Shown: positions 1 through 58,980 of the stretch, piece after piece
Numbering within the stretch: the stretch's first letter is position 1
Layout of the letters: every line of letters starts with the position of its first letter
From: a virus
IMG/VR virus record: IMGVR_UViG_3300045988_173832
Length of the DNA stretch: 64,000 nt
Direction: 5' to 3' (one strand)
Made by a program: the position numbers and the translations under genes
The notes under the pieces: generated by a model
Told to the model about the DNA's origin: nothing
What the model saw: the letters and a program-made list of their open reading frames with translations, nothing else
Databases searched by the model: none

Positions 1-420
1 CAGGAACAGTGGAGGTCTGTGATCGAACAGATGTACAGGGAGTATGCAGATTGTACACCGAGATTTAGTAGACATCTTAACTTTGTTACAGGCGATAAGT
101 TTGATAATGCTGGTCATCTCGATTTTCATCATAGACGCATGATACTCGATATGTTTATTGTATTTGGGTATCATGAAAAACTATTTTCTTGGAACAATCC
201 TACACACTTTATGCTGCGTGTGTGTGATAACTGCGTAGTGTATCGTGATTGGATGGTTTAATAAACTAGGCGTGTGCAGCCGTTTAGTAGTATGTCATAA
301 TAATCTTTAGAAGGAGGCTGTCCCACCCTCCTTCCAACAGTAGGATCCTTCAGATCCTTCAACGCTCTATAGTAATGCACAGATATGACCAGCTACTGTC
401 TATTGTGAAAGGAGTACTTT

Positions 421-1275
421 ATGTACAATTACAGCAATTTGGTACACACTGTTGTAGCTAGTGGTGAAAGATATGCCGCTAGAGTACACAAACAGACTAT
501 GCCATTTATGGTTCTGAGGCGTTTGGCAGCGGAGGATAATATGAACTCCACATTTAAGAGTGCAAATATCTCTGCAGCTAGAGCTGTGGAGTACACTTTA
601 CGTGGTTTACGTGATACACTGACCGCTCGTAAGGAAGATAAGCCTAAGCTTATGCGCATTTGGGACAGTGGATTCTTGGCTTTGACAGAGATCCTGCGCA
701 TTTATGGTGTGAAGATTGTAGAAGGTAGTCATTTTGCGGCAACACTGTATAAGACGCTTAAGTCAATTGATTACGATGTCTTAACAGAGAGCTTCTGCAG
801 GGCGAATAACTCAAAGCACATGACAGTTAGGATGTTTAGTCATGCTCTTGCATACCCTGCAATGTATACATCTGCAAATATTTGTCAGCGTACAATAGCT
901 CGTATGCAGCGGCTGCATACCAGATATGGTATCAATATTGAGATGAGTGATTTTTCTGACGAGCAGCGTATTGATATTGTTGATCTGACAAAGACGATTA
1001 TTGACAGTGCAGAGGTATCTGGCTACTATTACACATTTAGATACTTTGCTGCTTTCGCTCCGAGATTTAAGCTCTCTGATGAGTTAGTAAAGAGCATCAC
1101 AAACTGCCTTGATCACGAGAATTATAATAAGAATGTGCTCTTACAGGTTTATTGGGAGCTCAGGAAGTTAAACGCACAGGGTGAGTTGCCTGAACAGCAG
1201 GGTATCATCTACTTATTTGACTTGTATGGTGGACCTTATTTCAATGCCGGGTACACTAATGTCTTCGGACGTTAA
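421..1275 (+). CDS. hypothetical protein (284 aa)
   Basis: Long ORF in track; ATG preceded by GAAAGGAG RBS; no recognisable motif. Confidence 0.5.
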   Translation: MYNYSNLVHTVVASGERYAARVHKQTMPFMVLRRLAAEDNMNSTFKSANISAARAVEYTLRGLRDTLTARKEDKPKLMRIWDSGFLALTEILRIYGVKIVEGSHFAATLYKTLKSIDYDVLTESFCRANNSKHMTVRMFSHALAYPAMYTSANICQRTIARMQRLHTRYGINIEMSDFSDEQRIDIVDLTKTIIDSAEVSGYYYTFRYFAAFAPRFKLSDELVKSITNCLDHENYNKNVLLQVYWELRKLNAQGELPEQQGIIYLFDLYGGPYFNAGYTNVFGR

Positions 1276-1319
1276 GTCAGTATAAAGTGTACATTTAGCA
1301 GGTTGTAGATCAGGATAAT

Positions 1320-1495
1320 AGAATGAATCTGACTGATTCATTAAGTAGTTACAGTAATGTGCCATGATGATAAGCAACCTGCACAGCGCATGCAGCTGTG
1401 ATATTGTAGGCTGATAGTATCTTTGGAGCTGCTGCATGCACTGTGCAGCTCCAACAGAATGAATCTGACTGATTCATTAAGTGGTTATAGTAATG
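1320..1495. repeat. two 40-bp direct repeats (1320-1359 and 1456-1495, 38/40 identical), each holding an inverted repeat aatgaatc-N5-gattcatt, flanking a long GC-rich inverted repeat (about 1378-1450)
   Basis: Read directly from sequence; arms ctgcacagcgcatgcagc / gctgctgcatgcactgtgcag are near-perfect reverse complements. Confidence 0.6.
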
Positions 1496-1725
1496 CATCA
1501 TTTCAGAAGGCAGTATCAAATTATTTTATATTTGTGTGATAACAGATACAGTTACTTAGGCTTCATGGCAGTAGTCATGAAGTTTTTATACGGACAGGGC
1601 TTTAGCAGCAGTTAAGGCTGAATGTAGGGAATGCCACAAGAGGTGGCACAACGCTTGATGGTGGGTTTGAGGCATAACGAGATGACAATTTGCGCATGAG
1701 CAGAAAGTCATAACCAAATAGTATC

Positions 1726-1754
1726 TTGACACTAGGATTTAAGTGTGTTATACT
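1726..1754 (+). promoter_or_regulatory. sigma-70/SigA-type promoter: TTGACA, 17-bp spacer, TGtTATACT (extended -10)
   Basis: Consensus -35 and extended -10 read from sequence, about 45 bp upstream of ORF 1798. Confidence 0.55.
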
Positions 1755-1797
1755 ATTAGCAAAATAATGTTTCTTAGCTGAGATTGGAGAATAAAGC

Positions 1798-2274
1798 ATG
1801 CTTCACATTTATTTCAATCCTAGGGACGATTATGACAGTGTCTTAACCGAGGATAACTATCGTATTCAGCCAACCTTTTGGTTTGATTATCAAGGAGGTG
1901 CTGATTATATTACTGGAGATGTTGAACGAGCAATTATTGCAGATATCGATAAAGGTGAAGTTATCAATAGAAACATGATTGATTTCCCAGTTTTTGGGTG
2001 TATGTCTCCAGATAAGCTATCGGGTACTTCCAAAACACTTATTCTTGCCAACAATGAACCAGGCATATACGTAAATGGGGACTTTGTTGGTAATAATGGT
2101 TATAGGTGGATTCTATCTTTAGCAGAAGACAAGGATATCTATCTACATGCTACGTGTCTGATGCATTTCCAATGCGATTTTAAAGCTCATATTATTAATG
2201 ATGATTCTTATATTTCCTCTTGGAAGGAGTTTTTAGATAAGGGGGTAGATTTCTTATATGAAAGGAATTCGTAA
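1798..2274 (+). CDS. hypothetical protein (158 aa)
   Basis: ORF track; downstream of consensus promoter. Confidence 0.5.
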   Translation: MLHIYFNPRDDYDSVLTEDNYRIQPTFWFDYQGGADYITGDVERAIIADIDKGEVINRNMIDFPVFGCMSPDKLSGTSKTLILANNEPGIYVNGDFVGNNGYRWILSLAEDKDIYLHATCLMHFQCDFKAHIINDDSYISSWKEFLDKGVDFLYERNS

Positions 2275-3232
2275 GTTTCAATTATCCTCAAAGAATATCT
2301 TGTTTGATATTGAGCTGCATAGAAATGTTACAGTAATTCGCGGTGACGGCGCAACATATAAGACAATGTTCTGTAATATGCTTAGAGCAGCCCATGTCAA
2401 GGGAAGCGGTGTTCATCTTCGCAGTTATCAAGCTGAAGTCCTCTGTTTAACAGATCAGGAGTTTAATGCAGATAATTTAGTACAGTACAAAAATAAAGAC
2501 GTCATTCTTGTATTTGACGAATCTTCTTCTTGTATACGTACAACAGCATTTAGAGAAGCAATTGAATCCACAGGTTGCTACTTTATTCTAATCACTAGAA
2601 ATAGATGTGACTGCTTTGGTATGAGCATGAAAGAGCTGTATGAGTTCACATATTCTGACTCAGTCGACTTAAGCAAGCGTGTGATTAGCATGAACCCACT
2701 TTACAAGAGTGATTGTTATGGAATATTAAGCAATCAGTCACAGGTGATTACTGAAGATTCTAATGCAGGCAAGCAGTTCTTTAACAGGGCATATGGGCAT
2801 GAACACGTTTACACCTCTCATGGCAAAAGTAATATTCCTGCAGCAATAAAAGAGTATTCAGATAGTATTGTAGTTGTGGATGGAGCAGCATTCGGTTTTG
2901 AAGTAGAAGATGTTCTCCCTCTGCTGTCAGCATACAATTGCTATTTAGTAGCAAAAGAGTCTTTTGAATATGTATTGTTGAAGTCTGGAATTTTGAAGAA
3001 TCTTGTGACCATTAATATCGATGAGCCGGAGGTTGATTCAAAGAAATATTTAACATGGGAACGTTTTTACACAGATTATATTCAAGAGATTACATCAGGA
3101 ACTGTTTTTGAATATAATAAAGTACATTTAAATGAAGCCTACTACATTTCGCAAGACAACAAACAGAAAATTTTGGATGTTTACAAATTACCATATGCTT
3201 TATTTTCAGAAACCACTTCATATTTTGAATAA
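2258..3232 (+). CDS. hypothetical protein (324 aa); possible degenerate P-loop NTPase (RGDGATYKT ... VILVFDE)
   Basis: ORF track; weak Walker A/B-like motifs only. Confidence 0.45.
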   Translation: MKGIRKFQLSSKNILFDIELHRNVTVIRGDGATYKTMFCNMLRAAHVKGSGVHLRSYQAEVLCLTDQEFNADNLVQYKNKDVILVFDESSSCIRTTAFREAIESTGCYFILITRNRCDCFGMSMKELYEFTYSDSVDLSKRVISMNPLYKSDCYGILSNQSQVITEDSNAGKQFFNRAYGHEHVYTSHGKSNIPAAIKEYSDSIVVVDGAAFGFEVEDVLPLLSAYNCYLVAKESFEYVLLKSGILKNLVTINIDEPEVDSKKYLTWERFYTDYIQEITSGTVFEYNKVHLNEAYYISQDNKQKILDVYKLPYALFSETTSYFE

Positions 3233-3287
3233 CACATGTTATGACTGTACGCTGTACAGTCATATTTCTTTAGTAGGAGGTAAATAT

Positions 3288-3470
3288 ATGTCTACTTATG
3301 AGATCATCAGCTTTAACGGCAAAGTTATTTCTACAGGCATATGTAAAGACATCAGGCACTATTATGATCCATTTACACATGTAGAAATGGTTGACTTTAC
3401 AGATTCAGTAACGAATACAGTTATCACGATTTGTAAAGATTTTGTTACTATCACACCTTTAGCAGCTTAA
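3288..3470 (+). CDS. small hypothetical protein (60 aa), internal start of ORF 3132..3470
   Basis: ATG 3288 preceded by CTTTAGTAGGAGG (RBS AGGAGG, 7-nt spacer); ends ...TPLAA. Confidence 0.4.
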   Translation: MSTYEIISFNGKVISTGICKDIRHYYDPFTHVEMVDFTDSVTNTVITICKDFVTITPLAA

Positions 3471-3487
3471 GGAGACGAATAAATATT

Positions 3488-4222
3488 ATGCGTATATGTA
3501 AAAAGGGAATTAATGACCTTAAAACTTGGTGCTCACAGCATGGAAATTTTGGTCAACAGCTAATGACCGAATGGACAGAAGATATTCCAATGGATAGCAT
3601 AGCCAGAGGAAGTGGTAAAAAAGTCAAATGGAGATGTTCAAAAGGACACGAGTGGTATGTAAGCATAAATGAAAGAACAGGGAAAAAGCGAAGTTGTCCT
3701 TATTGCTTTAGAGAAAACGCAAGTACATTGATGACAAAAGCAAGCCTTTCAGAAGAAAACAGTCTTAAAACCTGGTGTATGCAGAATGGCGCATTTGGTC
3801 AGCAGCTCATTAGTGAATGGACAGGCAAATTATATGACGGAACCAAAACAAATTTAGATGAAGTAACAAGAGCAAGTGGCAAGAGAGTTAAGTGGAGATG
3901 TGACAAAGGGCATGAATGGTATGCTACAATATATAGTAGAACGAGACAAAAGTGTGGTTGTCCTTATTGTTCTGGACGGATGGCTTCAGAAGAAAACAGT
4001 TTAAAAACTTGGTGTATGCAAAATGGTGATTTTGGTAAGCAGCTTATGAGTGAATGGACAGGTGAGCTTGAAGATGGAGCTAAAACAAGTTTAGATGAGG
4101 TAGCAAAGGCAAGTCGTAAGAGGGTCAGGTGGAGATGTGACAAAGGGCATGAATGGTATACAGCAATCTGGCAAAGAACAAGCCAGAAGACAGAGTGCCC
4201 TTATTGTTACAGAAAAAATTGA
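3488..4222 (+). CDS. protein with three tandem zinc-ribbon repeats of about 70 aa (W-C..GHEW...CPYC; resembles DUF4379/PF14311 'probable zinc-ribbon')
   Basis: Three near-identical repeats visible in translation (KRVKWRCDKGHEWY...CPYC). Confidence 0.6.
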   Translation: MRICKKGINDLKTWCSQHGNFGQQLMTEWTEDIPMDSIARGSGKKVKWRCSKGHEWYVSINERTGKKRSCPYCFRENASTLMTKASLSEENSLKTWCMQNGAFGQQLISEWTGKLYDGTKTNLDEVTRASGKRVKWRCDKGHEWYATIYSRTRQKCGCPYCSGRMASEENSLKTWCMQNGDFGKQLMSEWTGELEDGAKTSLDEVAKASRKRVRWRCDKGHEWYTAIWQRTSQKTECPYCYRKN

Positions 4223-4283
4223 AGCAAATAGGGAATCAGCACTCCTCACGTCAACTGATTACTTTTAATTATAAGGAGATTTT

Positions 4284-5201
4284 ATGCTTTACGTATATGA
4301 GTACCTAGATTCTATAGTTCTGGTAAGAGAGATATGCAAGCATTGCACAGATTACATCGCATGTCCACCACGATTTTTTAATGATATGATTAGTCATATA
4401 GATTTTACTGATGAAACTATTCATGATATAATTTCACAAGTGGATTCTTCACTTATAAATCGTATTTATGCTGCAATTGATCATCAAGCGCTAGAAGATG
4501 TGTGCGCAATACTGTCAGATAGCTGTAAAACTGCAATTATAGCGCACCTCTATCAGGATTATTGTATATCGTTGGATTACGCATCATCTTTCTTAGTAGA
4601 AGAACTGATTCATAGTTGGGCTAAGCTTCGGGATGTAAGTATAGCAACAAGCAGACCACTTACGAATGTATATTGCAGTGCTCCAACATATTTTGTCCCA
4701 AGAGGAACATGCTATTCAATTGAGCAGATCAATAGATATATTGACGCTGATTTGAAAGCAGAGCACAAGTCTTTACAGTGTCAGTTGTCTACAGATGGTT
4801 TTTATTTAGATTTTGATCTTGCTGGACCTATACAGATAGTGCATGATAAATATAGTTGTGCATCTAGACTTTATGAATTGGCACGAACACATACTAATGA
4901 TATAATGGAAGGCACTGACCTATTATTGGGGGCTTATACACCAGGACAGTTTACAATGTTTCCACGAACTGCTAAGCATGTTTGGGTGGTTGACCCCTAT
5001 GAAGAACTTATTGATAGCTCGGTAGTAGCACAGGAAATAATATCAGCTTCAATGAAGGGGCATTATTTTATCATACCAACATTGAAACCCATGCGCAGTT
5101 ATTTTCAGGATGCTATTTATACAGATAGAGACCTAACTTTTGCAGAGCATACTTTTAAGATACAGAAGCCCACGCCTACTACATCAACTAATTACTTTTG
5201 A
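4284..5201 (+). CDS. hypothetical protein, paralog of ORF 8615..9502 ('MLY..E / YIACPP / LSDSCKT / TLKPM..YF' family)
   Basis: Shared N-terminal and C-terminal motifs with 8615..9502 visible in translations. Confidence 0.6.
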   Translation: MLYVYEYLDSIVLVREICKHCTDYIACPPRFFNDMISHIDFTDETIHDIISQVDSSLINRIYAAIDHQALEDVCAILSDSCKTAIIAHLYQDYCISLDYASSFLVEELIHSWAKLRDVSIATSRPLTNVYCSAPTYFVPRGTCYSIEQINRYIDADLKAEHKSLQCQLSTDGFYLDFDLAGPIQIVHDKYSCASRLYELARTHTNDIMEGTDLLLGAYTPGQFTMFPRTAKHVWVVDPYEELIDSSVVAQEIISASMKGHYFIIPTLKPMRSYFQDAIYTDRDLTFAEHTFKIQKPTPTTSTNYF

Positions 5202-5317
5202 TTATAAGGATATTTCATGTCAAAACATCTTTTAGCAGCTGAAAAAAAGTCTGAAGAAATATGCTGTTACAACTAAACCTGCAGATGCTATGGCTAATCT
5301 GCACTTTGTGCTGATTC

Positions 5318-5554
5318 ATGGATATGGGAGTCGCTGTAAGTAACATGAACAAACACATTCGAAATGTTTATAAATCCATATTCAACGAAAATTTCAACCC
5401 CGCTTTACCAGACAATCGTTTGAAAATGCAAAGTATGGTATATCTTCTTCAGGAGAGTGGAACATCATTAGGCGATTATGGTTTTCTATGGTACAAATGC
5501 GGCTTATATTGTCAGGCATTAACTGACGATATGCTTGAAGAAAACACAAAATAA
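5318..5554 (+). CDS. hypothetical small protein (78 aa) in atypical-codon segment
   Basis: ORF track; C-ending codons enriched compared with flanks. Confidence 0.35.
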   Translation: MDMGVAVSNMNKHIRNVYKSIFNENFNPALPDNRLKMQSMVYLLQESGTSLGDYGFLWYKCGLYCQALTDDMLEENTK

Positions 5555-5597
5555 AACAATAAATGTACGAAAAGGAAACAAATTCTGAGAGAACAAC

Positions 5598-6026
5598 ATG
5601 GCATTAAACGAAATATTACAGAACATAACAATCCTCACAAACAACAGCGCAAGCCCCACCGGTTTTGCATGGGAATGCATCGTCTTATGCGGAATAGCAT
5701 GCTGTATTATGATTGCATGGCTTATATGCGAGATCATAAATTATGGACATACTTCAGTCAAGATTTTTGCAGGCTTTATGGCAACGCTTTTTGCTGCTTG
5801 TATAATAGGCGGCATTTTATTGATTTGCAACGAAGACATGCATCTTGCTGGCACAGTAGTAAACCTATACGTCAGATTCAACGACGTCACAATCGAAGAT
5901 ATGTCACAGTATTTCAAAATAAGTAATATGACAGCGGCAAATGAAGGAATATACGCTGATATAACGCCTATTGCTGAATATAGCATGGAAATTAAGCATG
6001 CATTGAACAGCATGGGTGTAATCTAA
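5598..6026 (+). CDS. small membrane protein (142 aa, 2-3 TM helices)
   Basis: Hydrophobic segments; RBS-like GGAAACAAATTCTGAGAGAACAACATG weak. Confidence 0.4.
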   Translation: MALNEILQNITILTNNSASPTGFAWECIVLCGIACCIMIAWLICEIINYGHTSVKIFAGFMATLFAACIIGGILLICNEDMHLAGTVVNLYVRFNDVTIEDMSQYFKISNMTAANEGIYADITPIAEYSMEIKHALNSMGVI

Positions 6027-6395
6027 AGATACACAAATCTCTGATAGACACAGTCTATGGTCTGTCTTCCACGGAACTTAATGCAATCTCAACCAGAAAT
6101 AACAATCAGTTTTACAAGCATAGACAAAGTAAAACACATCATAAGCGAAGACATTATAGAAACTTCTATAAATATGCTGGTGTGTCATCACACCACGACA
6201 AACAGGATTACGAAGATTGTAATAAATATATCGTTTATTTTCGGCGACAAAATCGCAAACCTGATAACAATTTCGGCTATCAGGATGAGCATTTTGTTGA
6301 AACAGAAAACAACTGGAAAGAAACATGAGTCAGAAAATAATATCTGTGGCACAAGCCACGCCACATCAACATTTCTGAAGAAAGGAAAGAACAAA

Positions 6396-7253
6396 ATGCT
6401 TAACATTGCCAAATCTGCAAAAATCATTCAGAAAGAACTTGATAAGCAAACGCTTGAAAACGCAACGTCTGGCTGGATGGAAGAAAACATCACGCAGACT
6501 ATATACAGTGGCGGCTGTGAAATCAAAATGCCAAAAACAGATGTCAACGATTTCGATGCCTGTATTACATACATTTATGAAACGCTCAAACTTGCAAGAG
6601 AAAGAAATAAGCGTTTTTGCATCGACAAGCATGACATTGACAAGGAAAACATTGCACAAACTATAACCGCTGTCATATCCGAATTTCAGCGCACGCAGGT
6701 AAATCCTGAAATCGATGCATACCGCTATTCCAGACTGGCTGCTGCAGCCGGCATTCGGGAAAACTATATCCCAAATAAAGCAACCATCACAGCCAGACTA
6801 TTGAACCAGCTCAGCAAGGTTCGTAGTGAGATAAGTGATAAGGACGATATTGTTATTGTCATGAGCCGTCATGCTTACGACAAGCTTATATATTCAGATA
6901 AAGTTTCGCAAAATATCGAAACATCTCAGTTCAGACAGGGCGAACTCGATTTGTATGTAAAGTCCATTGATAATGTTTATATCATTCCTGTGCCGTCTAC
7001 AAGAATGAAAACCGCATACACATTCAATGATAACGAGGGATTTGCTGCAATCGAAAATGCCAAAGAAATCAACTGGATCATCTGTCCCAGAACAACCCCT
7101 ATTGCAATATCCAAGACGGACAATATTGTAATCACAACACCCGAAACAAATCAGTTTGACCCTGATTTATGGGACGTTGATTACAGCAAATATTATGACC
7201 TGTTCATACCCGACAACAAGAAAGCTACTATTGCTGTTTCCATTAGAGAATAA
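6396..7253 (+). CDS. hypothetical protein (285 aa); ORF 6057..7253 in track with a likely real start at ATG 6396
   Basis: First in-frame ATG with AAAGGA upstream; region 6057-6395 A/C-rich and probably non-coding. Confidence 0.45.
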   Translation: MLNIAKSAKIIQKELDKQTLENATSGWMEENITQTIYSGGCEIKMPKTDVNDFDACITYIYETLKLARERNKRFCIDKHDIDKENIAQTITAVISEFQRTQVNPEIDAYRYSRLAAAAGIRENYIPNKATITARLLNQLSKVRSEISDKDDIVIVMSRHAYDKLIYSDKVSQNIETSQFRQGELDLYVKSIDNVYIIPVPSTRMKTAYTFNDNEGFAAIENAKEINWIICPRTTPIAISKTDNIVITTPETNQFDPDLWDVDYSKYYDLFIPDNKKATIAVSIRE

Positions 7254-7278
7254 CACTTGAAAGAGGTGACAAAACCAA

Positions 7279-7297
7279 CATGATGAATTTCATCATG
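7279..7297. promoter_or_regulatory. perfect 19-bp palindrome catgatgaa-t-ttcatcatg (operator-like) in intergenic region
   Basis: Read from sequence. Confidence 0.4.
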
Positions 7298-7505
7298 CCA
7301 GACCCTAAAACGTAACCAAAAATAGTATTAAATGCCCCTTGATTCGGGAAATTGCTATCGATATGTGTAAATCAATGCTGGGCAAGGATAATTTCGATAC
7401 GCAGACATCTTACTGATGTCATGAAGAAAGGAGAATTGACATGACCAAAAACGAAATTAAGGCAGATTTATGCCTGGGAGCTACTGTTTATTAAAAGGAG
7501 TTTTT

Positions 7506-8600
7506 ATGTCAAAACATATATGGGGTTACTGGGACTGCCAGTGTGGGCATACGCATATTCGAGGAGACGTCACAGAATGCCCAGGATGCGGTTCTCCGCG
7601 TTTAGCAGATACAAAATTTTATGTGGATACATCGGTCAAAGAGTATGTAGAGGATTCCCAGAAAAATTCAAACCCAAACTGGATTTGCAATTACTGTAAT
7701 ACTCAGAATGCTTCTGCAGACCAAGTATGCAAACAGTGTGGAGCATCACGAGAAAAAGATTCTCAGACTTATTTTAATCATGGTGATAACTCATCAAACA
7801 AAAGAATGGTGCAATCTTCAGTTATAGCGCAGTGCAATATGACTAACAACGAACAGCCAGCATCTGATAAAGATACAATTTCAAGCAGAATCAGAGCTAT
7901 TCCTCGACAGGCAAAGTTAGCAATCATATGGACAACCTTAGCAGTGACGCTAATAGCTTTGTTAGCTTGGCTGTTTATACCAGTCGAGCATCAAATGACA
8001 GTTGAAGGCTTTAGCTGGCAACGAAGCATAGCAGTTGAAGAATTAAGAACATTTGATGAGTCTGGGTGGTCTCTTCCAACAAATGCTCGTTTGGATTATA
8101 CTCGTCAGGAGTTTCATCATAATGAAGAAGTCCTAGATCATTATGCTACTGAAACTCGGCAGGTTGAGCGTAAGCGCATAACGGGATATGATGAAAGAAT
8201 TGTAGGATATAGAGATCTGGGAAATGGCCAGTTTGAAGAAGAAACAGTAAGAGAACCAATCTATGAAACATACTATGAAACAGAGACATATCAGGATCCA
8301 GTATACAGAATGGAACCAGTCTATATGACGAAGTACTATTACGAGATAGACAGATGGACAAAGACACGCTCAGTAGACACAAGCGATTCAGGTAAAAGCC
8401 CGTACTGGGGCAAGATAGCTTTAGTAGACAAAGAGCGACGTGGAACATCATCTGAAAGTTATTTCATAAATGGACATATTGAAGATGAATATAAACAATT
8501 TTCAATCAATTATGAAGACTGGTCAAGATTATTTGAAGGGGATATAATTTCGTTTACAACATTTAGATTTGGCAATGAGATTTTGAGCATGACAGCTTAA
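7506..8600 (+). CDS. zinc-ribbon membrane protein (two CxxC...CxxC ribbons, one TM, Tyr/Glu-rich repeats); likely real start ATG 7506
   Basis: AAAGGAG RBS 5 nt before ATG 7506; CQCGH..CPGCG and CNYCN..CKQCG motifs. Confidence 0.55.
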   Translation: MSKHIWGYWDCQCGHTHIRGDVTECPGCGSPRLADTKFYVDTSVKEYVEDSQKNSNPNWICNYCNTQNASADQVCKQCGASREKDSQTYFNHGDNSSNKRMVQSSVIAQCNMTNNEQPASDKDTISSRIRAIPRQAKLAIIWTTLAVTLIALLAWLFIPVEHQMTVEGFSWQRSIAVEELRTFDESGWSLPTNARLDYTRQEFHHNEEVLDHYATETRQVERKRITGYDERIVGYRDLGNGQFEEETVREPIYETYYETETYQDPVYRMEPVYMTKYYYEIDRWTKTRSVDTSDSGKSPYWGKIALVDKERRGTSSESYFINGHIEDEYKQFSINYEDWSRLFEGDIISFTTFRFGNEILSMTA

Positions 8601-8614
8601 CAGGAGGAAGTATT

Positions 8615-9502
8615 ATGCTTTACATATGGGAAGATAATATAAATTTACGTGAAGTCGCAATTGAAAGTAATATGGAATATATAGCCTGTCCGCCAACCTG
8701 GTTTAACTCAGAGGCATTTCTGCAGATGAACTTAAACAAATTTAAGGAGATTATTCAAAGAGTTGATAATAAGTCTTTAGCAGAGGTTAAAGATCCTATA
8801 GCAGACCTTTCAGACAGTTGTAAAACTGTTATTGTTGTATATCATTATTATTCTGGTTATATTGTATCCCTAGATTTTATGGAATCTTCAGTTGGAGGTG
8901 CAATGATTGCAGAACTGTCCAGTATTAGAGATGTAAGAGTAGCTACAAGTCATGCAATAGCATGCTTGCCTTCTAACACACTTGCATACATAATGAATGA
9001 TGCAGCTGATCTTCATAAGGATATCAATCAGTGCATTGAAGAGGCATTTAAGCCTAAAGATAGATCGCTATATTGTAAATCATCTGCTGGAAGTTACAGA
9101 ACAGAACTTGAGTTTGCAAAGAACATTCAGGTAGTCAGAGGTGACTCCAGAGAGATGAAGATGCTCTACGATTTTGTCAAGCGTGAAGGAGACATACCTT
9201 TAGCAGGAACAAATCTTATGCTAAGTAATTATGAATCTTATAAGTTTCGTAATGACCACTATCGGTGCAATAATGTGTACATAACTAATCCATATGATAC
9301 AGAGTTGGCAGATCCTGCTGTAGCAATGGAGATTATGACAGTGGCTATAACCGGAGGCTATTTCTTAATCTCAACACTGAAACCGATGCATAACTATTTT
9401 GCTGAAATGATTGATACACAGGGCAGGCTACGTTTAGTAGGAGACACATTTAAGCTTACAACACATAATGAAGCAAGTGAAACTAATCTGTTCGGGGAGT
9501 GA
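8615..9502 (+). CDS. hypothetical protein, paralog of 4284..5201
   Basis: Shared motifs with 4284..5201; GGAGG RBS. Confidence 0.6.
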   Translation: MLYIWEDNINLREVAIESNMEYIACPPTWFNSEAFLQMNLNKFKEIIQRVDNKSLAEVKDPIADLSDSCKTVIVVYHYYSGYIVSLDFMESSVGGAMIAELSSIRDVRVATSHAIACLPSNTLAYIMNDAADLHKDINQCIEEAFKPKDRSLYCKSSAGSYRTELEFAKNIQVVRGDSREMKMLYDFVKREGDIPLAGTNLMLSNYESYKFRNDHYRCNNVYITNPYDTELADPAVAMEIMTVAITGGYFLISTLKPMHNYFAEMIDTQGRLRLVGDTFKLTTHNEASETNLFGE

Positions 9503-9597
9503 GATATTGAAGCATAACTTGGAAGCAGTTGGAATAATTATCGTATTTTCGGTTTCACTTTTTATTGTTTTATGTATAATTGGATAAGGAGATATCT

Positions 9598-10071
9598 ATG
9601 ACGCATTGTTTAAAAACTAAACCGAAATATTTTAACGCAATCCTATCTGGTTTAAAGACATTTGAGCTAAGAAAGAGTGATCGAAATTATCACATTAACG
9701 ATGAGCTTATCTTAGCAGAGTATGACACCACATTTACGGGTCGAAAAGTATCTGCAAGAATTTCATATATCTTAAATGTGGGTGATATTTGTCAGGAAGC
9801 TGCTAACTTTGTGATATTAGGTTTAAGCATGCATGATATATCAGAATTTCAAAATATCTTTGACTATGTTAAGAGCGCTGACTGGAATAACCATGTTTGC
9901 TTTGAGCAGTTACGCGCACTTTGGACAGCCTATTGTATACACAATCATTATGAGTGCGACACATATGCATATGATACAAAGCTGCGAGAATTGTACGAGG
10001 AGTATGCACAGCATGATGTTTCCTTAACAGTTGAGCAGTTTGATGAATATATGTGTGAACATCTTGTTTAA
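9598..10071 (+). CDS. ASCH-like (DUF3850-type) domain protein
   Basis: KPKYFNAILSGLKTFELRKSDR..NDELIL matches my recollection of the DUF3850/ASCH pattern; AAGGAG RBS before ATG 9598. Confidence 0.45.
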   Translation: MTHCLKTKPKYFNAILSGLKTFELRKSDRNYHINDELILAEYDTTFTGRKVSARISYILNVGDICQEAANFVILGLSMHDISEFQNIFDYVKSADWNNHVCFEQLRALWTAYCIHNHYECDTYAYDTKLRELYEEYAQHDVSLTVEQFDEYMCEHLV

Positions 10072-10085
10072 TTAGGAGGTACTTA

Positions 10086-10487
10086 ATGTATTTTTCAATG
10101 TACGCTACAATCAAATTTAACAGGCCTATAAATAAAGATACTGATTATGTTTCGCCTGGCTCTTATGAAATAGTTTCTGGAGATGAGACATACAGATTTG
10201 ATTTCGAAACTTATTATGGCGATGTCGATGCTGAAGATAATACAATTCTTCATATAGAGTGCATGCATCCCGATGGCTACTGTTTTGAGGATATCGCAAG
10301 ACTCACAAGGGATACTTTAGCAGAGATTAAGCAGTTTAGTGAATTTTTCATTTATATTACTGCATCTAATCTTACACCTATAGCACTAATGGACTGCGAC
10401 TTTGTTCTTCATGACTTTAACAACGAAGTTATATCATTATCTGAAAATGTCTGCAGTAAAACTAAATTTTCTTTTTCAGGAGATTAA
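10086..10487 (+). CDS. hypothetical protein (133 aa)
   Basis: ORF track; AGGAGG RBS. Confidence 0.45.
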   Translation: MYFSMYATIKFNRPINKDTDYVSPGSYEIVSGDETYRFDFETYYGDVDAEDNTILHIECMHPDGYCFEDIARLTRDTLAEIKQFSEFFIYITASNLTPIALMDCDFVLHDFNNEVISLSENVCSKTKFSFSGD

Positions 10488-10932
10488 TGTGTATAAGATA
10501 GTTTATGTACAAAATAATGAATTGCAGGAGTCTACATATTCATTATCATTTTATGAAGCGTTAAAGTCAGCAGCAATTTATATACAATTTGCTGACATGC
10601 GTGATAACAAATCCCACAAGCTCTTTATTCTAAAAGAAAATAGTAAAACTGGGTATCTTGAAGAATTTTATAGTGAGATAGGCACAAGTATATCTAAGGA
10701 TGAGCTAGAGACGACTCTGGGTCCACTTATTTATGTTAATGCTTCTACAGAAGATAATATAAACGTGTGGCATGGAATGTACACAAATCAGAACACAGCT
10801 ATTAAAGCTCTACCTAAGATAGCATTACACTTAAAGCAGCACAAGTCATTGTTATTTGAACTAACAACCTTTAGCAGTAAGGAAAAGTTAGGCATGTTTG
10901 ATCAATATGGCAAGGAAGTGGCTTATGGTTGA
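10488..10932 (+). CDS. hypothetical protein; candidate GTG start at 10488 for ORF 10402..10932
   Basis: Avoids 85-nt overlap with upstream gene; AGGAG 6 nt upstream of GTG. Confidence 0.35.
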
Positions 10933-11326
10933 TATTTGTTCTGTAAAGACATTTAACTATGAGAAGACCTATGATTTAGTTTATATTATAGTGAGAAGTC
11001 TTACTGCACTAAGAAATAGTGGAGATCCAATTCTCTCTCGAGGAGTCCAATGCAAACTGCTAAGTCCGGGGGACATTCTCTTTAAGAAGTACTTAAGTCT
11101 GAAGAGAAATGGCAACTGGAATATTGTAACCTTTGAGAATATCTATCGTCCAGAATTTGAATCTCAAATATCAGAAAGTCAGGAAGCCCAGCTTATGCTC
11201 CAGTCATTAGCTTTAGCAGATAAACAAATTGCACTTGTTTGCTATTGTGATTCTCCATTTCTGTGTCATCGCAGAATTATTGGAGAAATGCTTGAAAATC
11301 TCGGGGCAGAGGTTGGATATTATTGA
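10898..11326 (+). CDS. DUF488-like protein (..ALVCYCDSPFLCHRRII..)
   Basis: C-terminal CxC...CHR motif recalled from the DUF488 family; exact start uncertain (TTG 10898 / ATG 10925). Confidence 0.45.
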   Translation: MINMARKWLMVDICSVKTFNYEKTYDLVYIIVRSLTALRNSGDPILSRGVQCKLLSPGDILFKKYLSLKRNGNWNIVTFENIYRPEFESQISESQEAQLMLQSLALADKQIALVCYCDSPFLCHRRIIGEMLENLGAEVGYY

Positions 11327-11341
11327 TAAAGAGGTAATTTT

Positions 11342-11599
11342 ATGTTTACAAATCGAGCAGAAACAGGCAGAAATAATATCGTAGGAGTGGCTGTGCACGA
11401 GTATCGTAAGCAGTTGCGAATCAGCCAGCGCGAACTTGCGGATAGACTGCAGATTATAGGCTTGGATATAGACAAGAATGCTGTACAACGTATTGAATCC
11501 GGGCAGCGTTTTATAACAGACATTGAGCTAATATATCTAGCACAAGTGTTCAATATTACAGTTGAAGAACTTTATGAGGGTAATCAGACACAAATTTAA
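11342..11599 (+). CDS. XRE-family helix-turn-helix transcriptional regulator
   Basis: ISQRELADRL...NAVQRIESGQR is a classic Cro/CI-type HTH. Confidence 0.7.
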   Translation: MFTNRAETGRNNIVGVAVHEYRKQLRISQRELADRLQIIGLDIDKNAVQRIESGQRFITDIELIYLAQVFNITVEELYEGNQTQI

Positions 11600-11633
11600 C
11601 GTATGAATATGCAAACATTTGTTTTGAAATGAG

Positions 11634-12068
11634 GTGATACATCTGAGTGAAATACTATATAGAACTGAGTCAGCTTATGGCTCAAAACATAGAGAAATTA
11701 TTGATGTTATGCAATATGAGATATTTGAGCTAAATAATTCAGATATTCTTGATTATCTAATTATTCACCATACTGATGCTTTTGATGTTCATCAGATTAG
11801 CAGAATTTATGGTGTCTTTGCTGGCTTAATTAACACAGATAGTGCACAGTATGACTTTTGTAGAGAATTGGTAGAAGCTCTTAACAGTTATTACAATGTG
11901 CATCTAAAATACTGTTTATGGCTTGCAAGTAAGTCAACAGTACTAGACTTATATAATGCTTCTGAACAGGATATACAGAAATATGAAACATCACCTATTA
12001 TACTGAGTGATTTGGGTATGGATGGTATGCTTTTTGCCTATGAATCTATGCCAAGACCTCTAAATTGA
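11634..12068 (+). CDS. hypothetical protein (144 aa)
   Basis: ORF track. Confidence 0.4.
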   Translation: MIHLSEILYRTESAYGSKHREIIDVMQYEIFELNNSDILDYLIIHHTDAFDVHQISRIYGVFAGLINTDSAQYDFCRELVEALNSYYNVHLKYCLWLASKSTVLDLYNASEQDIQKYETSPIILSDLGMDGMLFAYESMPRPLN

Positions 12069-12202
12069 ATGATTATAGTGTATGATATGTTCATATAAGT
12101 GTAAAGTCCTTTTACCGTATCTCCAACACAGCTGAAATATTATATAAGTATACATGTAGCTCACAGGGGATATACAGATTACCTTTAGCAGGAGGTTAGA
12201 TT

Positions 12203-12493
12203 ATGATTCATCGTGACATACGCTATCGTAGGTTCCAGAGACGAAACGCAATTCAGCACAAGGTGAAAATTGCTGCAAGCTCATTTAGCTTTTCGCCAGA
12301 GTATCTTGCAAATCCCAGGCATGTAGGGCAGTGGGCTAAAGGTAAGGTGCATTGCTCTTGTCCTTTATGTGCCTGCAAGTCAACAAAGTATTTTGGAGTT
12401 CATGATAAGTCTATGCATAATTACAGTGCAAGTGACAGACGCAAGTTCATGCGTATGCAGGAACAGATTACAGAGTATTATACAGCAGCGTAA
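12203..12493 (+). CDS. hypothetical protein (96 aa)
   Basis: ORF track; ATG preceded by CTTTAGCAGGAGG. Confidence 0.45.
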   Translation: MIHRDIRYRRFQRRNAIQHKVKIAASSFSFSPEYLANPRHVGQWAKGKVHCSCPLCACKSTKYFGVHDKSMHNYSASDRRKFMRMQEQITEYYTAA

Positions 12494-12528
12494 AGCACCA
12501 TCTTTTTCAGTTTAGGAGACTATGTGAT

Positions 12529-13317
12529 ATGCGAATAACAACATTTCGTTCAGGCAAAACAGCAGAGCAGGCAAGAGAACATCTTTTCAAGTATCTAAAG
12601 CAGGTATCTTTAGTAGCACCTAAGACAACTGTCATGCCGGATATTCTCGCTCCTGTGAAGGGGAAAGAAACAATAATATCTTTAGTAGCTGATGGTGCAG
12701 CAGAAACTGTTGTGAAAGCACGCAGAGAGAATCCAAATGCTAAAATCGCAGTATTAAACTTTTCCAGTTTTAAACATCCGGGTGGCGGGTTTATGACAGA
12801 TATGCTTGCACAGGAAGAGAGCTTGTGTTATTGCTCAAATCTGTATTGGGAATTAAATAAGCATAGAAATGATTTTTATGCGGTTAACAGTAGCATGCTT
12901 AATTCAGGATTATACGCAGACAGGGCTATGCTTTCAGAAAATATTAGTTTTGTTGCATCAGCACCTGAAAACTATTTGCCTAACAAAGAAATTTGTACAG
13001 CAGATGTTATAACATGCGCTGCTCCAAATCTTAATTATATGATGCGAAGAGGACGCCATTGGGATAAGGAAGTTCTGCAGGCAATACGGGATCGTATTCA
13101 TTATGTGAACTCTATCTTAGCAGGACGAAATTACGATATAGTGATTTATGGTGCCTATGGTTGTGGTGTCTTTAAAAATGATCCTGACTTTGTAGCTAGA
13201 TGCTTCAAATGGGACCTTCAGCAAAATTATCCCAACTCCTTTAGCAGAGTAATATTTGCTATTCCAGATAAGTCAAGCAAGAATTATCTTGCATTCAAGG
13301 GGGTGCTCTTTGAATGA
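12529..13317 (+). CDS. bacterial-type poly(ADP-ribose) glycohydrolase-like macrodomain protein (DUF2263/TIGR02452 family)
   Basis: PARG signature GGG-X6-QEE present as HPGGGFMTDMLAQEESLC. Confidence 0.65.
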   Translation: MRITTFRSGKTAEQAREHLFKYLKQVSLVAPKTTVMPDILAPVKGKETIISLVADGAAETVVKARRENPNAKIAVLNFSSFKHPGGGFMTDMLAQEESLCYCSNLYWELNKHRNDFYAVNSSMLNSGLYADRAMLSENISFVASAPENYLPNKEICTADVITCAAPNLNYMMRRGRHWDKEVLQAIRDRIHYVNSILAGRNYDIVIYGAYGCGVFKNDPDFVARCFKWDLQQNYPNSFSRVIFAIPDKSSKNYLAFKGVLFE

Positions 13318-13592
13318 AAGTAAAAGATATGTTTATTGAATTTATAAATAAGACTGAGAGTATCATATCCACAATGGATGAAGACATGAGGATTCAGTGG
13401 CTATCTACAAAAGTATCATGCTCAGTGGGAATTATATTGCTGTGTGTGGGTACGATACTCAGTTTAGCTGTTGGAGTTACAGCCTGTGCAGCTACGATTC
13501 TTTTCTTCAGTATAATGTATTTCTCTATGTCAATTATTATTGGTACTGTGACCATTTTATGTATGCCAAAAGAGTCTACTGATAGACTTTGA
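13314..13592 (+). CDS. small membrane protein (92 aa)
   Basis: Two hydrophobic helices. Confidence 0.4.
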   Translation: MKVKDMFIEFINKTESIISTMDEDMRIQWLSTKVSCSVGIILLCVGTILSLAVGVTACAATILFFSIMYFSMSIIIGTVTILCMPKESTDRL

Positions 13593-14154
13593 CCAAATTT
13601 TAATCAAAAGGTGAAATTCCAGCCTGACTGCACAGATTTTGGTAGTTGTTTTAGTGGATGTTCTATGTATAATCAGTCTACTATTATACCAAATGGCACT
13701 ATTAATTGTTCAGAAATGTTCTATGATTGTAGTAGTTATGATCAAGAAACTATTGTACCTACTAGTGTTAAGAGGACGGATTCTATGTTTAGTTCATGTG
13801 AGAATTTTCGTCACAGAGTTCATATCAGTGCAAATCAGCTTTCAGAGGACACATTTGATGATTGCAAATATATGAATTCTGATAGTACTACATGTGTATA
13901 TTTGTAATTAATTACATTTAACAAGGAAAGGAATGATCAATATGCCCAGCAATCAGAAGATGGCACTGATAAGCGCTATCGGCGCTGTTTCTGCAATCGT
14001 AGTAGGCGCAATGTGCTATACCGTACCTAAGCTGGTCAGCTCTATTCTCAAGAGCTAATTAACAAACATACCCTGCAGAAAGGGGTGATGATCATGGACA
14101 GAGAAGGTGGTCTGTAATTACCTTGTCCTCTGATTATATTAGAGGACGCATCAT

Positions 14155-14536
14155 GGGGGCGTAAAGGTCTCGACGGGGATCTGAACCTCTGATAAGCGTG
14201 TACGGATTGAGCAGATCCGTTCAAAAAGCTCATCGTTGAATAACATTCAACAACTCTGAAGCTGTAGCAGCTTGATGTTACTAGGCGTTCACTAGAGCGC
14301 TGAAAAAGGTATGGAAAGATGAACTGGTGACCTCTGCGTTCCATTGCTTCAAAAGAATTGCCACTAGCTCACAATATCGCTTGTTGTATTGTGATAAAGC
14401 TGCCATGACAAGTAAGTGACCTGTATGGAGGCAGAATCCACCAAGCAGGAACTGACAACAGTGAAACTATCTACACACGTAGAAAATCAGAGTGGAAGAT
14501 TTCTGGACACGGGTTCGATTCCCGTCGCCTCCACCA
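14155..14536 (+). ncRNA. ssrA: tmRNA (ssrA-like) copy 1; tag reading frame GCT CAT CGT TGA... interrupted by in-frame TGA after 3 codons
   Basis: 5' GGGGGCG...TTCGACGGGG and 3' GGACACGGGTTCGATTCCCGTCGCCTCCACCA; acceptor pairing gives G3:U (Ala identity); T-loop TTCGATT. Confidence 0.8.
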
Positions 14537-14583
14537 ATATATGTAGACAGTCTATTAGCAGTCACACTTGGAGGTGAGTATCT

Positions 14584-15063
14584 TTGTTACTTGGAGTTCA
14601 TTTCAAAAACAGCAATATTGGTTTACATGAGCTTACAGAGAACACAATTCTCTTATGCGATACTACTGTAGTTAAAGACAGAATAACTAACGATTTAGCA
14701 ACTACATTTGTTGATAAGACAGCAGAGCATGTAAACCTTAATGAAGGCTACGAATGGATTGATAATAACGATGTGAGTTTTAAAAAGATTATGAATTTCC
14801 TGCCCACATCAAAATATCAGTTCAATGCACGCAATATTCATATAAACCTTACAGTTTCGATTGAGCCTGCTATTGTGTATAGTGTAAAGAGTCTATATGA
14901 CATTTGGTTTGTAAGACTGAGCAGTGATGACAAGCTTTTATTCTATCCTTTAACAGAATTTGAAAACTATGAGAAGTATAATGACTTAGATGCACTCTAT
15001 AAAGCAGTAATAGTCGGAAGATTCTCTATAAAGGGAGATGCAAAGACTATTCCTTCTGAATAG
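14584..15063 (+). CDS. hypothetical protein (159 aa, TTG start in track)
   Basis: ORF track; backbone-like codon usage. Confidence 0.4.
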   Translation: MLLGVHFKNSNIGLHELTENTILLCDTTVVKDRITNDLATTFVDKTAEHVNLNEGYEWIDNNDVSFKKIMNFLPTSKYQFNARNIHINLTVSIEPAIVYSVKSLYDIWFVRLSSDDKLLFYPLTEFENYEKYNDLDALYKAVIVGRFSIKGDAKTIPSE

Positions 15064-15192
15064 AGTGGGTGGATACGTTGTTAGAGTTTAGCTATTATGA
15101 CAGAATAATTCGTTAAACTGTTGCATACAACTGCTTGCTAAGCTCTGATACTCACATAGACGATATCCTTATCGACCTAAATTCCTAGATGA

Positions 15193-15813
15193 TTGAAACA
15201 AGGGGGTACTACGATGATTAACGATGACAAGCTGAAATCCAAGAAGCACAGACTGGTACAAACGAGACTAGATGTATTTATTCTCGTGATATGCTTAGCA
15301 TTAGGTGCAATAAGCATATTCTGCTTACCCCTACTGATAGGCATTATTACCCTAGCTGCTGTCACAGTGGGCTATATCATCTATTCGATAATATACTTCC
15401 ACGCCTGTGACCCAGATATCCCAGCTGAACTCTTTGCTGACTGTCTATACTTTAGAATGATGACAGTGGCCGTCATAGGGGTACTGTGCATCACCTATAT
15501 TGTAGTTTTCAGTGCCGAATATGACACTATCACCAAGGCAACAACTCCCGTAGAGGCTACAGTGATATCTGTTCAGGACCCAGACGCAAGAACACAGCTT
15601 ACACTGGAATATCTTGATAGCCAGGGTACTGTTCAAATGGCTAGTTTGCGTGTCCGAGGTCGTGATGCAGATTACTCAATCGGTGATACAGTGCAGATTA
15701 AATACTCCCAGACAAATCCTAAGCTTATCTGCTCGGGTGATATCACCCCAGACAGTCCACTATTTACGCTATACACATCAAAGGTCAATCCATATATTGT
15801 GAATAGGAGCTGA
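15193..15813 (+). CDS. membrane protein (2 TM helices + beta-rich C-terminal domain; DUF3592-like guess), atypical codon usage
   Basis: TM segments; C-ending codons enriched. Confidence 0.45.
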   Translation: MKQGGTTMINDDKLKSKKHRLVQTRLDVFILVICLALGAISIFCLPLLIGIITLAAVTVGYIIYSIIYFHACDPDIPAELFADCLYFRMMTVAVIGVLCITYIVVFSAEYDTITKATTPVEATVISVQDPDARTQLTLEYLDSQGTVQMASLRVRGRDADYSIGDTVQIKYSQTNPKLICSGDITPDSPLFTLYTSKVNPYIVNRS

Positions 15814-16109
15814 TATTTCATGTACAGAACCAGTGTTTATAGAAGACAGGCTAGAGCCAAGGCAATAAGACGTAAAAAGTTTTATGCCCATGCTACAGGG
15901 TGGATATACACCCAGACGGGGCATTATCAAAGGGCAAGATACACTGTTCCTGCCCTATGTGTGCAGCTAAGTCATCTAGAGATGGCGGTGTTACGAGCAA
16001 TTCTTATGTAATCAAGTCCAAGCAGGGCAAGCTTGCTATCATATTTGCTAGGGAGCAGTTAGCGGACATTGCCTAATCCAACACCTGGGTACCACAAGTA
16101 CCCAGTCAT

Positions 16110-16497
16110 GGGGGCATAAAGGTTTCGACAGGGACTTGAAGCTCAGATAAGCACGTATAGGCTGGTGGGTGAACCTGTATAAAAGCCAACTATTATCGAA
16201 TAACATTCGATGCTACTGAAGCTGTAGCTGCTTAATCGCTACTAGGCAGTCACTAGACTGCTGAAAAGTGTGCAGTGATTTGAACTGGCGACCTCTGTGC
16301 TGTGCATCTAAAAGAAATGCCGCTAGGTTCAGTACCTCGCTTGTTGGGTGCTGTATAACCTTTAATGACAAGTAAGCTACTCATATGGAGGGTGATGACC
16401 ACCAAGTGAGAGCCGACAATAGTAAAAACACCTAAGCGTGTAGAAAGTCAGTGTAGACAGTTTCTGGACACGGGTTCAATTCCCGTCGCCTCCACCA
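16110..16497 (+). ncRNA. ssrA: tmRNA (ssrA-like) copy 2; predicted tag ANYYRITFDATEAVAA (GCC resume at 16185, TAA at 16233)
   Basis: 5' GGGGGCATAAAGGTTTCGACAGGG, 3' GGACACGGGTTCAATTCCCGTCGCCTCCACCA; intact tag ORF ending ..AVAA-stop. Confidence 0.8.
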
Positions 16498-16530
16498 AAA
16501 TTAAGTTTTATGTAAAAGGGGTAGCCTGTT

Positions 16531-17280: not shown

Positions 17281-17396
17281 TGATAAGGACACTGCTTAGA
17301 GATTGGGTGCATAACATATTTTAATAACCTTAGCAATCTATGTAATACTTTCTTACCAAAGTATCCTATAGGTATAGTAAGAAAGGAATGATTAGT

Positions 17397-58948: not shown

Positions 58949-58980
58949 TCATGTATGTGTCCGCCATATGGGGGACATAT

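Follow-up and report, generated by a model that had tools for sequence, protein, structure and literature searches.

The 64,000-nucleotide stretch of the IMG/VR virus record IMGVR_UViG_3300045988_173832 that was analysed here, referred to as the window, carries near its left end a segment with shifted codon usage, which lacks the otherwise recurrent octamer TTTAGCAG. The locus raises the question of whether this segment belongs to the element that carries it or was acquired, where it might have come from and what, if anything, it does there. An initial annotation had described positions 5205-7500 as a likely inserted moron. The best explanation overall, to which a probability of roughly 75% can be assigned, is that positions 5230-7517 are mosaic foreign DNA between a 305-amino acid (aa) and a 364-aa backbone gene of a large human-gut mobile element. 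The claim that the segment is acquired DNA is borne out, since it is missing from a close relative, compositionally foreign and homologous to another element family. Among its contents is a stand-alone gene for a homologue of HK97-type major capsid proteins.

The empty site and the junctions of the insert

The close relative that lacks the segment is L028, a locus on contig SRR25571971_1256. Here, a homologue of the 305-aa gene (90% identical) is followed after 15 nucleotides (nt) by a gene for 371 aa with 88% identity to the 364-aa gene of the window, and no insert lies between them. Positions 4272-5232 of the window align to L028 9989-10949 and positions 7484-13318 to L028 10912-16764 with about 92% identity; homology ends at 5229-5233 on the left and restarts at about 7484 on the right. 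All of the 29 other relatives that were retrieved contain the insert. They diverge from the window by at most about 1.6% in the upstream flank (positions 1-3474), and single genes downstream differ by as much as about 5%. The features at the junctions are as follows.

4284-5201, plus strand: 305-aa backbone gene directly left of the insert, a paralogue of the 295-aa gene at 8615-9502
5181-5229, plus strand: left junction repeat, comprising the end of the 305-aa gene, a ribosome-binding site and ATGTCAAAACAT (MSKH)
5218-5277, plus strand: 19-codon stub open reading frame (ORF) MSKHLLAAEKKSEEICCYN with stop codon, the duplicated start of the 364-aa gene, interrupted by the insert
5230-7517, no strand assigned: inserted segment of about 2288 base pairs (bp), without counterpart in L028
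7470-7517, plus strand: right junction repeat, comprising a ribosome-binding site and ATGTCAAAACAT
7506-8600, plus strand: 364-aa zinc-ribbon/transmembrane backbone gene, whose 5' end is the insertion point and which contains a copy of the octamer at 7601

Both ends of the insert bear the imperfect sequence ATTA[T/A]AAGGA..TTT[C/T]ATGTCAAAACAT, which corresponds to the ribosome-binding site and the first four codons (MSKH) of the target gene. These flanking direct copies are about 31-39 nt long and imperfect, with an exact core of 12 nt, and owing to this repeat the coordinates of the insert can equivalently be given as 5199-7486. The repeat family, D1, has members at 4248-4286, 5181-5219 and 7470-7508. 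The frame of the stub ORF is not conserved, as relatives carry an indel at 5248.

The 305-aa and 295-aa genes are full-length paralogues (30% aa identity, E = 3e-41), which sandwich the insert together with the 364-aa gene. This pair has no homologues outside the element lineage, and a homologue search with the 305-aa protein returned nothing beyond clusters at ≥90% identity. A second cassette that is present or absent among relatives contains a gene for a DUF4379 (treble-clef zinc-finger) protein at 3475-4271 and is missing from three of them (L001, L009 and L010). Its right end (4248-4286) bears another junction of the type TST(D/N)YF, stop codon and ribosome-binding site, resembling that at 5181-5219, and a copy of the octamer lies 9 nt left of its left boundary. 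The DUF4379 cassette and the insert suggest that cassettes were gained repeatedly at similar gene junctions. In some strains, insertions of IS110-family and DDE_Tnp_1 transposases are found near window positions of about 10075 and 9225 (L013 15961-17160; L017 15045-16022); thus, the neighbourhood has also been struck by insertion sequences.

Composition of the segment

The codon usage of the segment had been noted for three ORFs, starting at 5318, 5598 and 6396, and their enrichment in C/G-ending codons holds upon quantification: the pooled GC content at third codon positions (GC3) is 0.406, compared to 0.305 in the 73 other plus-strand ORFs (Fisher p = 2e-6), and all codons that had been named are elevated (ATC, 0.32 versus 0.18; GGC, 0.55 versus 0.18; GAC, 0.44 versus 0.27; ACG, 0.23 versus 0.08). 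The frequency of C at third positions (C3) is doubled (0.267 versus 0.135, pooled over the three ORFs), placing them first, second and fifth among 76 ORFs. The shift is directed specifically to C-ending two-fold codons and GAA. Furthermore, the GC skew of about +0.15 falls to about 0 over 5-8 kb, and among 125 two-kb windows just two exceed the interval 5501-7500 in tetranucleotide distance (98th percentile, copies of the octamer removed); the GC content of the whole window is about 0.376. Both comparisons that had been proposed as checks set the segment apart: GC3, codon usage and k-mers differ from the flanks, and of the related elements L028 lacks the segment, while in none of the 29 relatives that carry it does it contain a copy or common variant of the octamer.

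The octamer occurs 82 times in the window (80 times on the plus strand), whereas 4.6 copies would be expected from shuffled sequences. Its mean spacing, estimated earlier at about 0.8 kb, was measured as 785 bp. The motif-free interval had been given as 5231-8775, thereby overlooking the copy at 7601-7608; the true gap extends from 5231 to 7601 (2370 bp) and is the second largest, after that between 13240 and 18074. As an exponential model predicts about four gaps of such size among 79, and the probability of finding no copy in the insert alone is 0.044, this gap is not significant by itself.

It is extremely unlikely that the segment is native, with a codon bias caused by translational selection on a highly expressed capsid gene and a motif gap that arose by chance. 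The direction of the shift would fit this explanation, given that C-ending NNY codons and GAA are typical of highly expressed Firmicute genes, and so would the modest statistical weight of the motif gap. However, the close relative L028 lacks the segment with clean junctions, the non-coding and remnant parts of the insert are atypical in composition as well, the same composition is found throughout an unrelated donor-type element, including its helicase and MCM-like genes, and the homology to this donor reaches into truncated flanking genes.

A donor family of large gut elements

The interpretation of the segment as mosaic foreign DNA is substantiated by its homology to a family of elements of about 202 kb. 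Two loci of this family, L023 and L041, come from independent assemblies, ERZ857564 NODE_22 (201,850 bp) and ERZ28563861 scaffold_39 (201,696 bp), and these donor-type contigs are probably complete genomes of about 202 kb. Homologous DNA is present in the insert as two fragments, A and B. L041 continues L023 with an end overlap of 100% identity, which means that both fragments stem from a single element family; there, some 20 kb separate them. The contents of the insert are listed below.

5318-5554, plus strand: 78-aa ORF of doubtful coding status
5587-6026, plus strand: fragment A, with a 142-aa predicted membrane-protein gene at 5598-6026
6035-7472, plus strand: fragment B, comprising a truncated upstream gene, the full capsid homologue, a hairpin region and the initial codons of the gene that follows in the donor
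6035-6328, plus strand: 5'-truncated remnant of the donor gene that precedes the capsid gene (209 aa in L023)
6396-7253, plus strand: HK97-type major capsid (head) protein homologue of 285 aa with a phrog_422 match, preceded by the ribosome-binding site GAAAGGAAAG
6614-6618, plus strand: run of five T (T5), which is shortened to T4 in a widespread allele, causing a frameshift and a stop at codon 90
7165-7300, plus strand: high-identity block, 91-100% identical to L023, with a synonymous divergence (dS) of 0.13
7275-7301, no strand assigned: hairpin with a 19-nt palindrome (7279-7297) and a T-tract after the stem on the minus strand only
7385-7472, plus strand: second high-identity block, 91% identical to L023
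7441-7494, plus strand: 17-codon ORF MTKNEIKADLCLGATVY with stop codon, the 5' stub of a donor 190-aa gene, running into the junction repeat

The DNA of fragment A is 88% identical to L041 9990-10427. It matches four loci, L041, L042, L043 and L044, each time in an MgsA ... RRXRR context, in which all homologues of the 142-aa protein at 82-87% identity with an examined context (P0155, P0162 and P0163) are found as well; this constant context can therefore be regarded as the native one of the 142-aa gene, whose ratio of nonsynonymous to synonymous divergence (dN/dS) is 0.42. Five relatives (L029, L030 and L036-L038) possess a longer fragment A with about 395 bp of extra DNA between window positions 5582 and 5592, which extends the homology to 841 nt and holds two small ORFs homologous to donor genes for 73 and 57 aa. 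Hence, the shorter fragment A of the window looks like a secondary deletion within the insert. Wherever both are visible, the longer form is linked to the frameshift allele of the capsid gene. The 78-aa ORF upstream of fragment A has neither homologues nor family matches, and among its polymorphisms six are nonsynonymous and one is synonymous.

Fragment B is colinear with L023 9600-10990, that is, with the 3' part of the 209-aa gene, the capsid gene, the hairpin region and the start of the 190-aa gene. The stretch 6057-6395, which had been described as A/C-rich and apparently non-coding, is A-rich (41% over 6027-6395) and barely enriched in C (19% versus 17%), and the colinear alignment with the 209-aa gene of L023 identifies it as a gene remnant. 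The aa identity to L023 is 54% in frame 2 and 39-41% in the other frames, and mismatches cluster at the third position of frame 2 (48, versus 26 and 27). In the frame of the remnant, the earliest start codon is the GTG at 6182. The stretch 6027-6395 is open in the frame of the capsid gene, and its divergence from the homologue is biased to the third positions of a different frame.

The palindrome at 7279-7297 and the 17-codon ORF had been proposed to bound the segment on its downstream side. Both exist, but they lie inside the insert and were inherited from the donor context. The hairpin stem at 7275-7301 is kept in the donor-type element with a loop that is 6 nt longer, and the ORF, considered to be a possible leader, consists of the first codons of the donor 190-aa gene (L023 10959-11531), which likewise starts with MTKNEI. 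The block at 7385-7472 further contains a small palindrome (GACATC-TTACT-GATGTC) and a ribosome-binding site ahead of this start. The possibility of a structured leader or riboswitch at 7240-7510 was rejected, because this region folds no better than shuffled sequences (z = -0.66), and Rfam yielded no match in 5000-7800. It was also observed that an identity of 91-100% to L023 10700-10990 is reached over 7165-7300 and 7385-7472, which hold about the last 30 capsid codons, the hairpin and the DNA preceding the next gene; the rest of the gene is saturated, with a dS of about 1.7. This patch points either to a recent gene conversion between the element families or to a constrained DNA or RNA element.

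With a GC content of 42-43%, the donor family is C-rich at third positions, including those of its helicase and MCM-like genes, and about 90 kb of donor-type loci contain no copy of TTTAGCAG. The capsid genes of the window and of L023 share their third-position composition (GC3 0.42, C3 0.27, G3 0.15), and other L023 genes have a C3 of 0.26-0.35. The origin of the insert in a C-rich, motif-free donor family can thus explain its shift in codon usage, its flat GC skew and its lack of the octamer. Genes seen on donor-type loci encode ToxN, a UvrD-like helicase, YopX, Lar, an MCM/AAA protein, ClpP, SIR2, MgsA, RRXRR, PilZ and a RecJ-like DHH protein; most of them have the same orientation, and L041 has a block of minus-strand genes downstream of its 142-aa gene.

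An orphan capsid gene

The initial annotation had not recognised ORF 6396 as a capsid protein gene. The phrog_422 profile matches residues 115-397 of the long ORF over profile positions 2-293 of 297 (E = 5.3e-63), and tblastn aligns 93-100% of the query, at 27-37% identity, with genes annotated as capsid genes in phages of S. pneumoniae, C. difficile, Lactococcus and Listeria. A sequence search of the PDB gave no match. The AlphaFold2 (AF2) model is poor (mean pLDDT of 59, below 50 for the N-terminal 102 residues); nevertheless, its 50 best fold matches in the PDB are all HK97-fold capsid or encapsulin chains, albeit weak ones (best E of 2e-3).

The nearest homologues outside the 90% cluster of the protein itself are 55-62% identical. 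Those examined at 62% (P0032 and P0066) are orphans as well and reside in a different large element (L023), while those examined at 55-58% sit in portal-scaffold-capsid-adaptor-tail clusters of Oscillospiraceae metagenome-assembled genomes (MAGs). No portal, scaffold, protease or terminase gene was found within 10 kb on either side of the gene in at least 30 loci, nor around the donor-family copy; within the insert, its neighbours are the membrane-protein gene and gene remnants. The orphan clade shares derived changes at 37 of the 145 columns with a conservation of at least 90% among the other aligned homologues, of which two had their context examined and were both found in head-gene clusters, and it has lost a loop of about 10 residues with a near-invariant Y/R/G/Y. 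The derived residues and the lost loop fit decay and altered assembly behaviour alike.

The head-gene clusters of the two Oscillospiraceae MAGs (L026 7609-15075 and L027 5427-13157) are compact and lie between the housekeeping genes PFK, YbeY and PhoH. They show no terminase or integrase gene in view and possess an uncalled, stop-rich stretch of 585-655 nt upstream of the capsid gene; these clusters look GTA-like (GTA, gene transfer agent), satellite-like or like defective prophages.

A lone structural gene between cut neighbours, with 55%-identity homologues in real head-tail clusters, is also what would be left if a complete prophage or satellite had been deleted down to its capsid gene. This origin is very unlikely. 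The cut neighbours are not head genes, but the non-structural genes that flank the orphan in the donor family, implying that the capsid gene was already an orphan at the time of capture. Moreover, the segment contains neither an integrase gene nor an att-like remnant, and its other half stems from a different, non-structural region of the donor.

Alleles, selection and a possible function

Under the preferred reading of the segment as mosaic foreign DNA, the capsid gene is favoured to be dispensable cargo, as indicated by the wide distribution of a frameshift allele. The T4 allele splits the gene into ORFs of 202 and 130/150 aa, and its product is listed in 66 sample blocks of the index, compared to 29 for the exact 285-aa product. 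The reading frame is intact in 23 of 29 loci. In six independent loci or assemblies, the T5 to T4 change is linked to other single-nucleotide polymorphisms (SNPs); programmed frameshifting or phase variation at this site was rejected, since the run is not long enough and the linked SNPs are inherited along with the allele. Disrupted alleles are also found in the donor family, namely a nonsense allele (L023, codon 12) and a truncated one (L040, 248 aa). Selection on the gene in the donor family was purifying (dN/dS of 0.19), but the 1-nt frameshift is frequent in the present element.

The insert was presumably copied from the family of about 202-kb gut elements as two fragments, A and B. Entry probably occurred by short-homology or illegitimate recombination between co-resident elements without the help of a dedicated integrase, a route suggested by the lack of a recombinase gene in the insert and by the fact that donor genes are cut on both sides. 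Matches to a promoter consensus within the insert are weak and at chance level (24, compared to 19.7 expected; consensus scan only), and no plus-strand terminator was found after the capsid gene, the T-tract of the hairpin being on the minus strand. The capsid gene is probably transcribed by run-through from the backbone, whose genes point in the same direction. As an insertion, the segment is an ordinary case of mosaicism; its orphan capsid gene is mildly intriguing.

Several observations weigh against this interpretation. The polarity of the event relies on one empty-site relative, L028, and a precise deletion between the flanking repeats would look alike; even if L028 has undergone such a deletion, the flanking repeats and the cut donor genes imply an earlier insertion. 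Furthermore, the known donor loci keep the two fragments about 20 kb apart, and no source was found for 5233-5586; thus, the insert either came from an immediate donor other than these loci or was built in several steps. Finally, among intact copies, polymorphism within the 13-kb neighbourhood is lowest in the capsid gene (0.58%, compared to 3-8% polymorphic sites), and this gene is under purifying selection in its orphan context, with a dN/dS of 0.19 relative to the L023 copy across a dS above 1. These two findings fit a selected function better than pure junk.

They are also what would be expected if the orphan were a working gene that acts on phages, either as a Ccm-like or dominant-negative co-assembling subunit or as a decoy for capsid-sensing systems, which would make it adaptive cargo and a moron in function. 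The full-length ORF with a good ribosome-binding site, its retention in most loci, the selection seen between two copies that share the same non-structural three-gene context, and the orphan-clade changes, which could reflect changed assembly behaviour, are in line with such a role, for which a capsid-gene redirector, Ccm of SaPIbov5, provides a precedent (PMC8569155). Nonetheless, a working gene of this kind is considered unlikely: the inherited frameshift allele is widespread and the donor family contains nonsense and truncated alleles; PADLOC has no match for the protein or its neighbours; Pfam listings of the neighbourhood include no satellite-type genes, such as those for an integrase, a small terminase or packaging redirection; the adjacent donor genes were cut at capture, which argues that the fragment was not taken as a functional unit; and the protein has no known target phage. 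Pfam and NCBIfam likewise gave no match for the insert proteins or their neighbours. Equally doubtful is a more far-reaching scenario, in which a stand-alone clade of HK97 capsid homologues is kept under purifying selection, has been passed between two unrelated families of giant gut elements and is functional, be it as a saboteur or redirector of phrog_422 heads or as an element shell. If this were true, the frequent knock-out alleles would mirror fluctuating selection instead of decay.

The octamer as a possible backbone marker

Whether the octamer marks native backbone, as had been proposed, can be addressed with those segments of the first 19.5 kb whose presence varies among relatives (1720-3268, 3475-4271, 5233-7483, 13319-13917 and 14538-16610). 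These account for 37% of this region and hold one of 15 copies, or two when the one across the left junction is included (post hoc binomial p = 0.009-0.043), and the number of copies correlates negatively with tetranucleotide distance (rho = -0.35, overlapping windows). The proposal has therefore found limited support; it is plausible that the motif marks backbone and that its absence marks cargo.

The motif extends to C-TTTAGCAG, with C at position -1 in 54 of 80 copies (for example, at 1294, 7601 and 62836), and the variants TTTAACAG and TTTAGTAG show the same strand bias (23:2 and 17:1, plus to minus). In 54 copies it is read in frame as xxT-TTA-GCA-Gxx (Leu-Ala), and 20 copies are intergenic or unassigned. 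The 5.7 kb preceding the window contain it at a similar density (6-7 copies, none on the minus strand), as does L028, with 21 copies on one strand and none on the other. A role as a recombination site was rejected, as copies lie at or near two of about 10 indel boundaries (p of roughly 0.09 by the author's estimate, not significant). Similarly, motif sites are not conserved above random 8-mers between the window and L028 (8/11, compared to 64% expected), and a literature search for the octamer returned just incidental sequence strings.

The boundaries noted initially, 5205-7500, lie within about 25 nt of the true ones as defined by the L028 junctions. Composition and the lack of an element-wide 9-mer thus located a real horizontal insertion with this precision, and the second variable region, at 13-18 kb, also agrees with this signature. 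The octamer could therefore be of use for separating cargo and backbone in large gut elements of this family.

The host element

Contigs with genes of the window are mostly 214-360 kb long, and a few measure 1.3-3.8 Mb. The window encodes a CpaF/Tad-type pilus locus, reverse transcriptases, a sigma factor, PARG, flotillin, two transfer-messenger RNAs (tmRNAs) and a giant secreted protein; a phage structural module is not recognisable in the 64 kb. No DNA match for 4200-9600 was found among INPHARED phages, and megablast of the 22-kb stretch at 36-58 kb found none in PLSDB plasmids or phages. Scanning IMG/VR with the capsid protein and the 305-aa protein, and the GTDB species representatives with the 364-aa alignment or CpaF, gave no match either.

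Both tmRNA genes are full-length and lie on the plus strand about 1.6 kb apart (14155-14536 and 16110-16497; Rfam RF00023, 110.7 and 108.4 bits, gathering score 47); ARAGORN reports the second one only, with the tag ANYYRITFDATEAVAA followed by a stop codon. They are located inside the motif-free gap 13240-18074, the longest of all and variable among relatives, and three ORFs of atypical composition at 14-16.4 kb overlap them and are not protein-coding. Just downstream of the Tad/Flp pilus locus (CpaF, 47385-48917), an ORF of at least 1692 codons extends on the plus strand from about 58980 to 64000, where it runs off the end of the window; its N-terminus, MKKVIATIMAAAVMLSQ..., resembles a signal peptide.

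Comparison with known systems

The two families of very large gut elements that exchanged DNA here both lack matches in the collections searched. 'Hodor' conjugative megaplasmids, which are known from human gut metagenomes and were first taken for huge phages, have a size of 200-390 kb and a GC content of 44.6-47.1%, and are defined by genes for Rep_3, ParA/ParB, multiple sortases and a type IV secretion system (PMC12934698). The window has a lower GC content (37.6%), and the Hodor marker genes are not seen in its 64 kb; the resemblance in size (214-360 kb for host contigs, about 202 kb for the donor type) and gut origin serves as a lead only.

Morons of lambdoid and other temperate phages (Hendrix-type 'more DNA') are extra DNA between genes that are adjacent in a related genome, with a distinct composition and unrelated cargo. 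In the strict sense, the term implies a phage host as well as a promoter and terminator belonging to the insert. The host element here carries a Tad/Flp pilus locus and matches no phage collection, a promoter and terminator of the insert were not detected, and the insert is a patchwork with truncated edge genes; the term moron, which had been applied to it, may therefore not hold in the strict sense. It does hold with regard to extra DNA and composition: 2288 bp of compositionally distinct DNA separate two genes that are adjacent in L028, and the cargo is unrelated to its neighbours.

In phages with phrog_422 major head proteins (S. pneumoniae IPP prophages, C. difficile phiCD119 and phiSemix9P1, Lactococcus 1358, Listeria P35 and P40), the gene lies within a portal-scaffold-capsid module, whereas the copy in the window is an orphan without the conserved loop of about 10 residues; the full-length profile match is shared. 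Encapsulins are likewise small HK97-type proteins (about 285 aa here) that occur without other capsid genes, and they are among the weak fold matches. However, the window protein has neither an encapsulin match in Pfam or NCBIfam nor an adjacent cargo gene, and its sequence affinity is to genuine phage capsids.

A further parallel is Ccm of SaPIbov5, a capsid-protein homologue on a phage satellite, which redirects capsid assembly of the helper phage (PMC8569155). Here, by contrast, there is neither a satellite architecture nor a known helper phage, any co-assembly would be hypothetical, and the gene is often broken. Both are stand-alone HK97-type capsid homologues on a non-phage mobile element, away from a head-assembly module. 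Taken together, the locus flags an orphan lineage of capsid proteins in large gut elements, whose function, if any, is putative.

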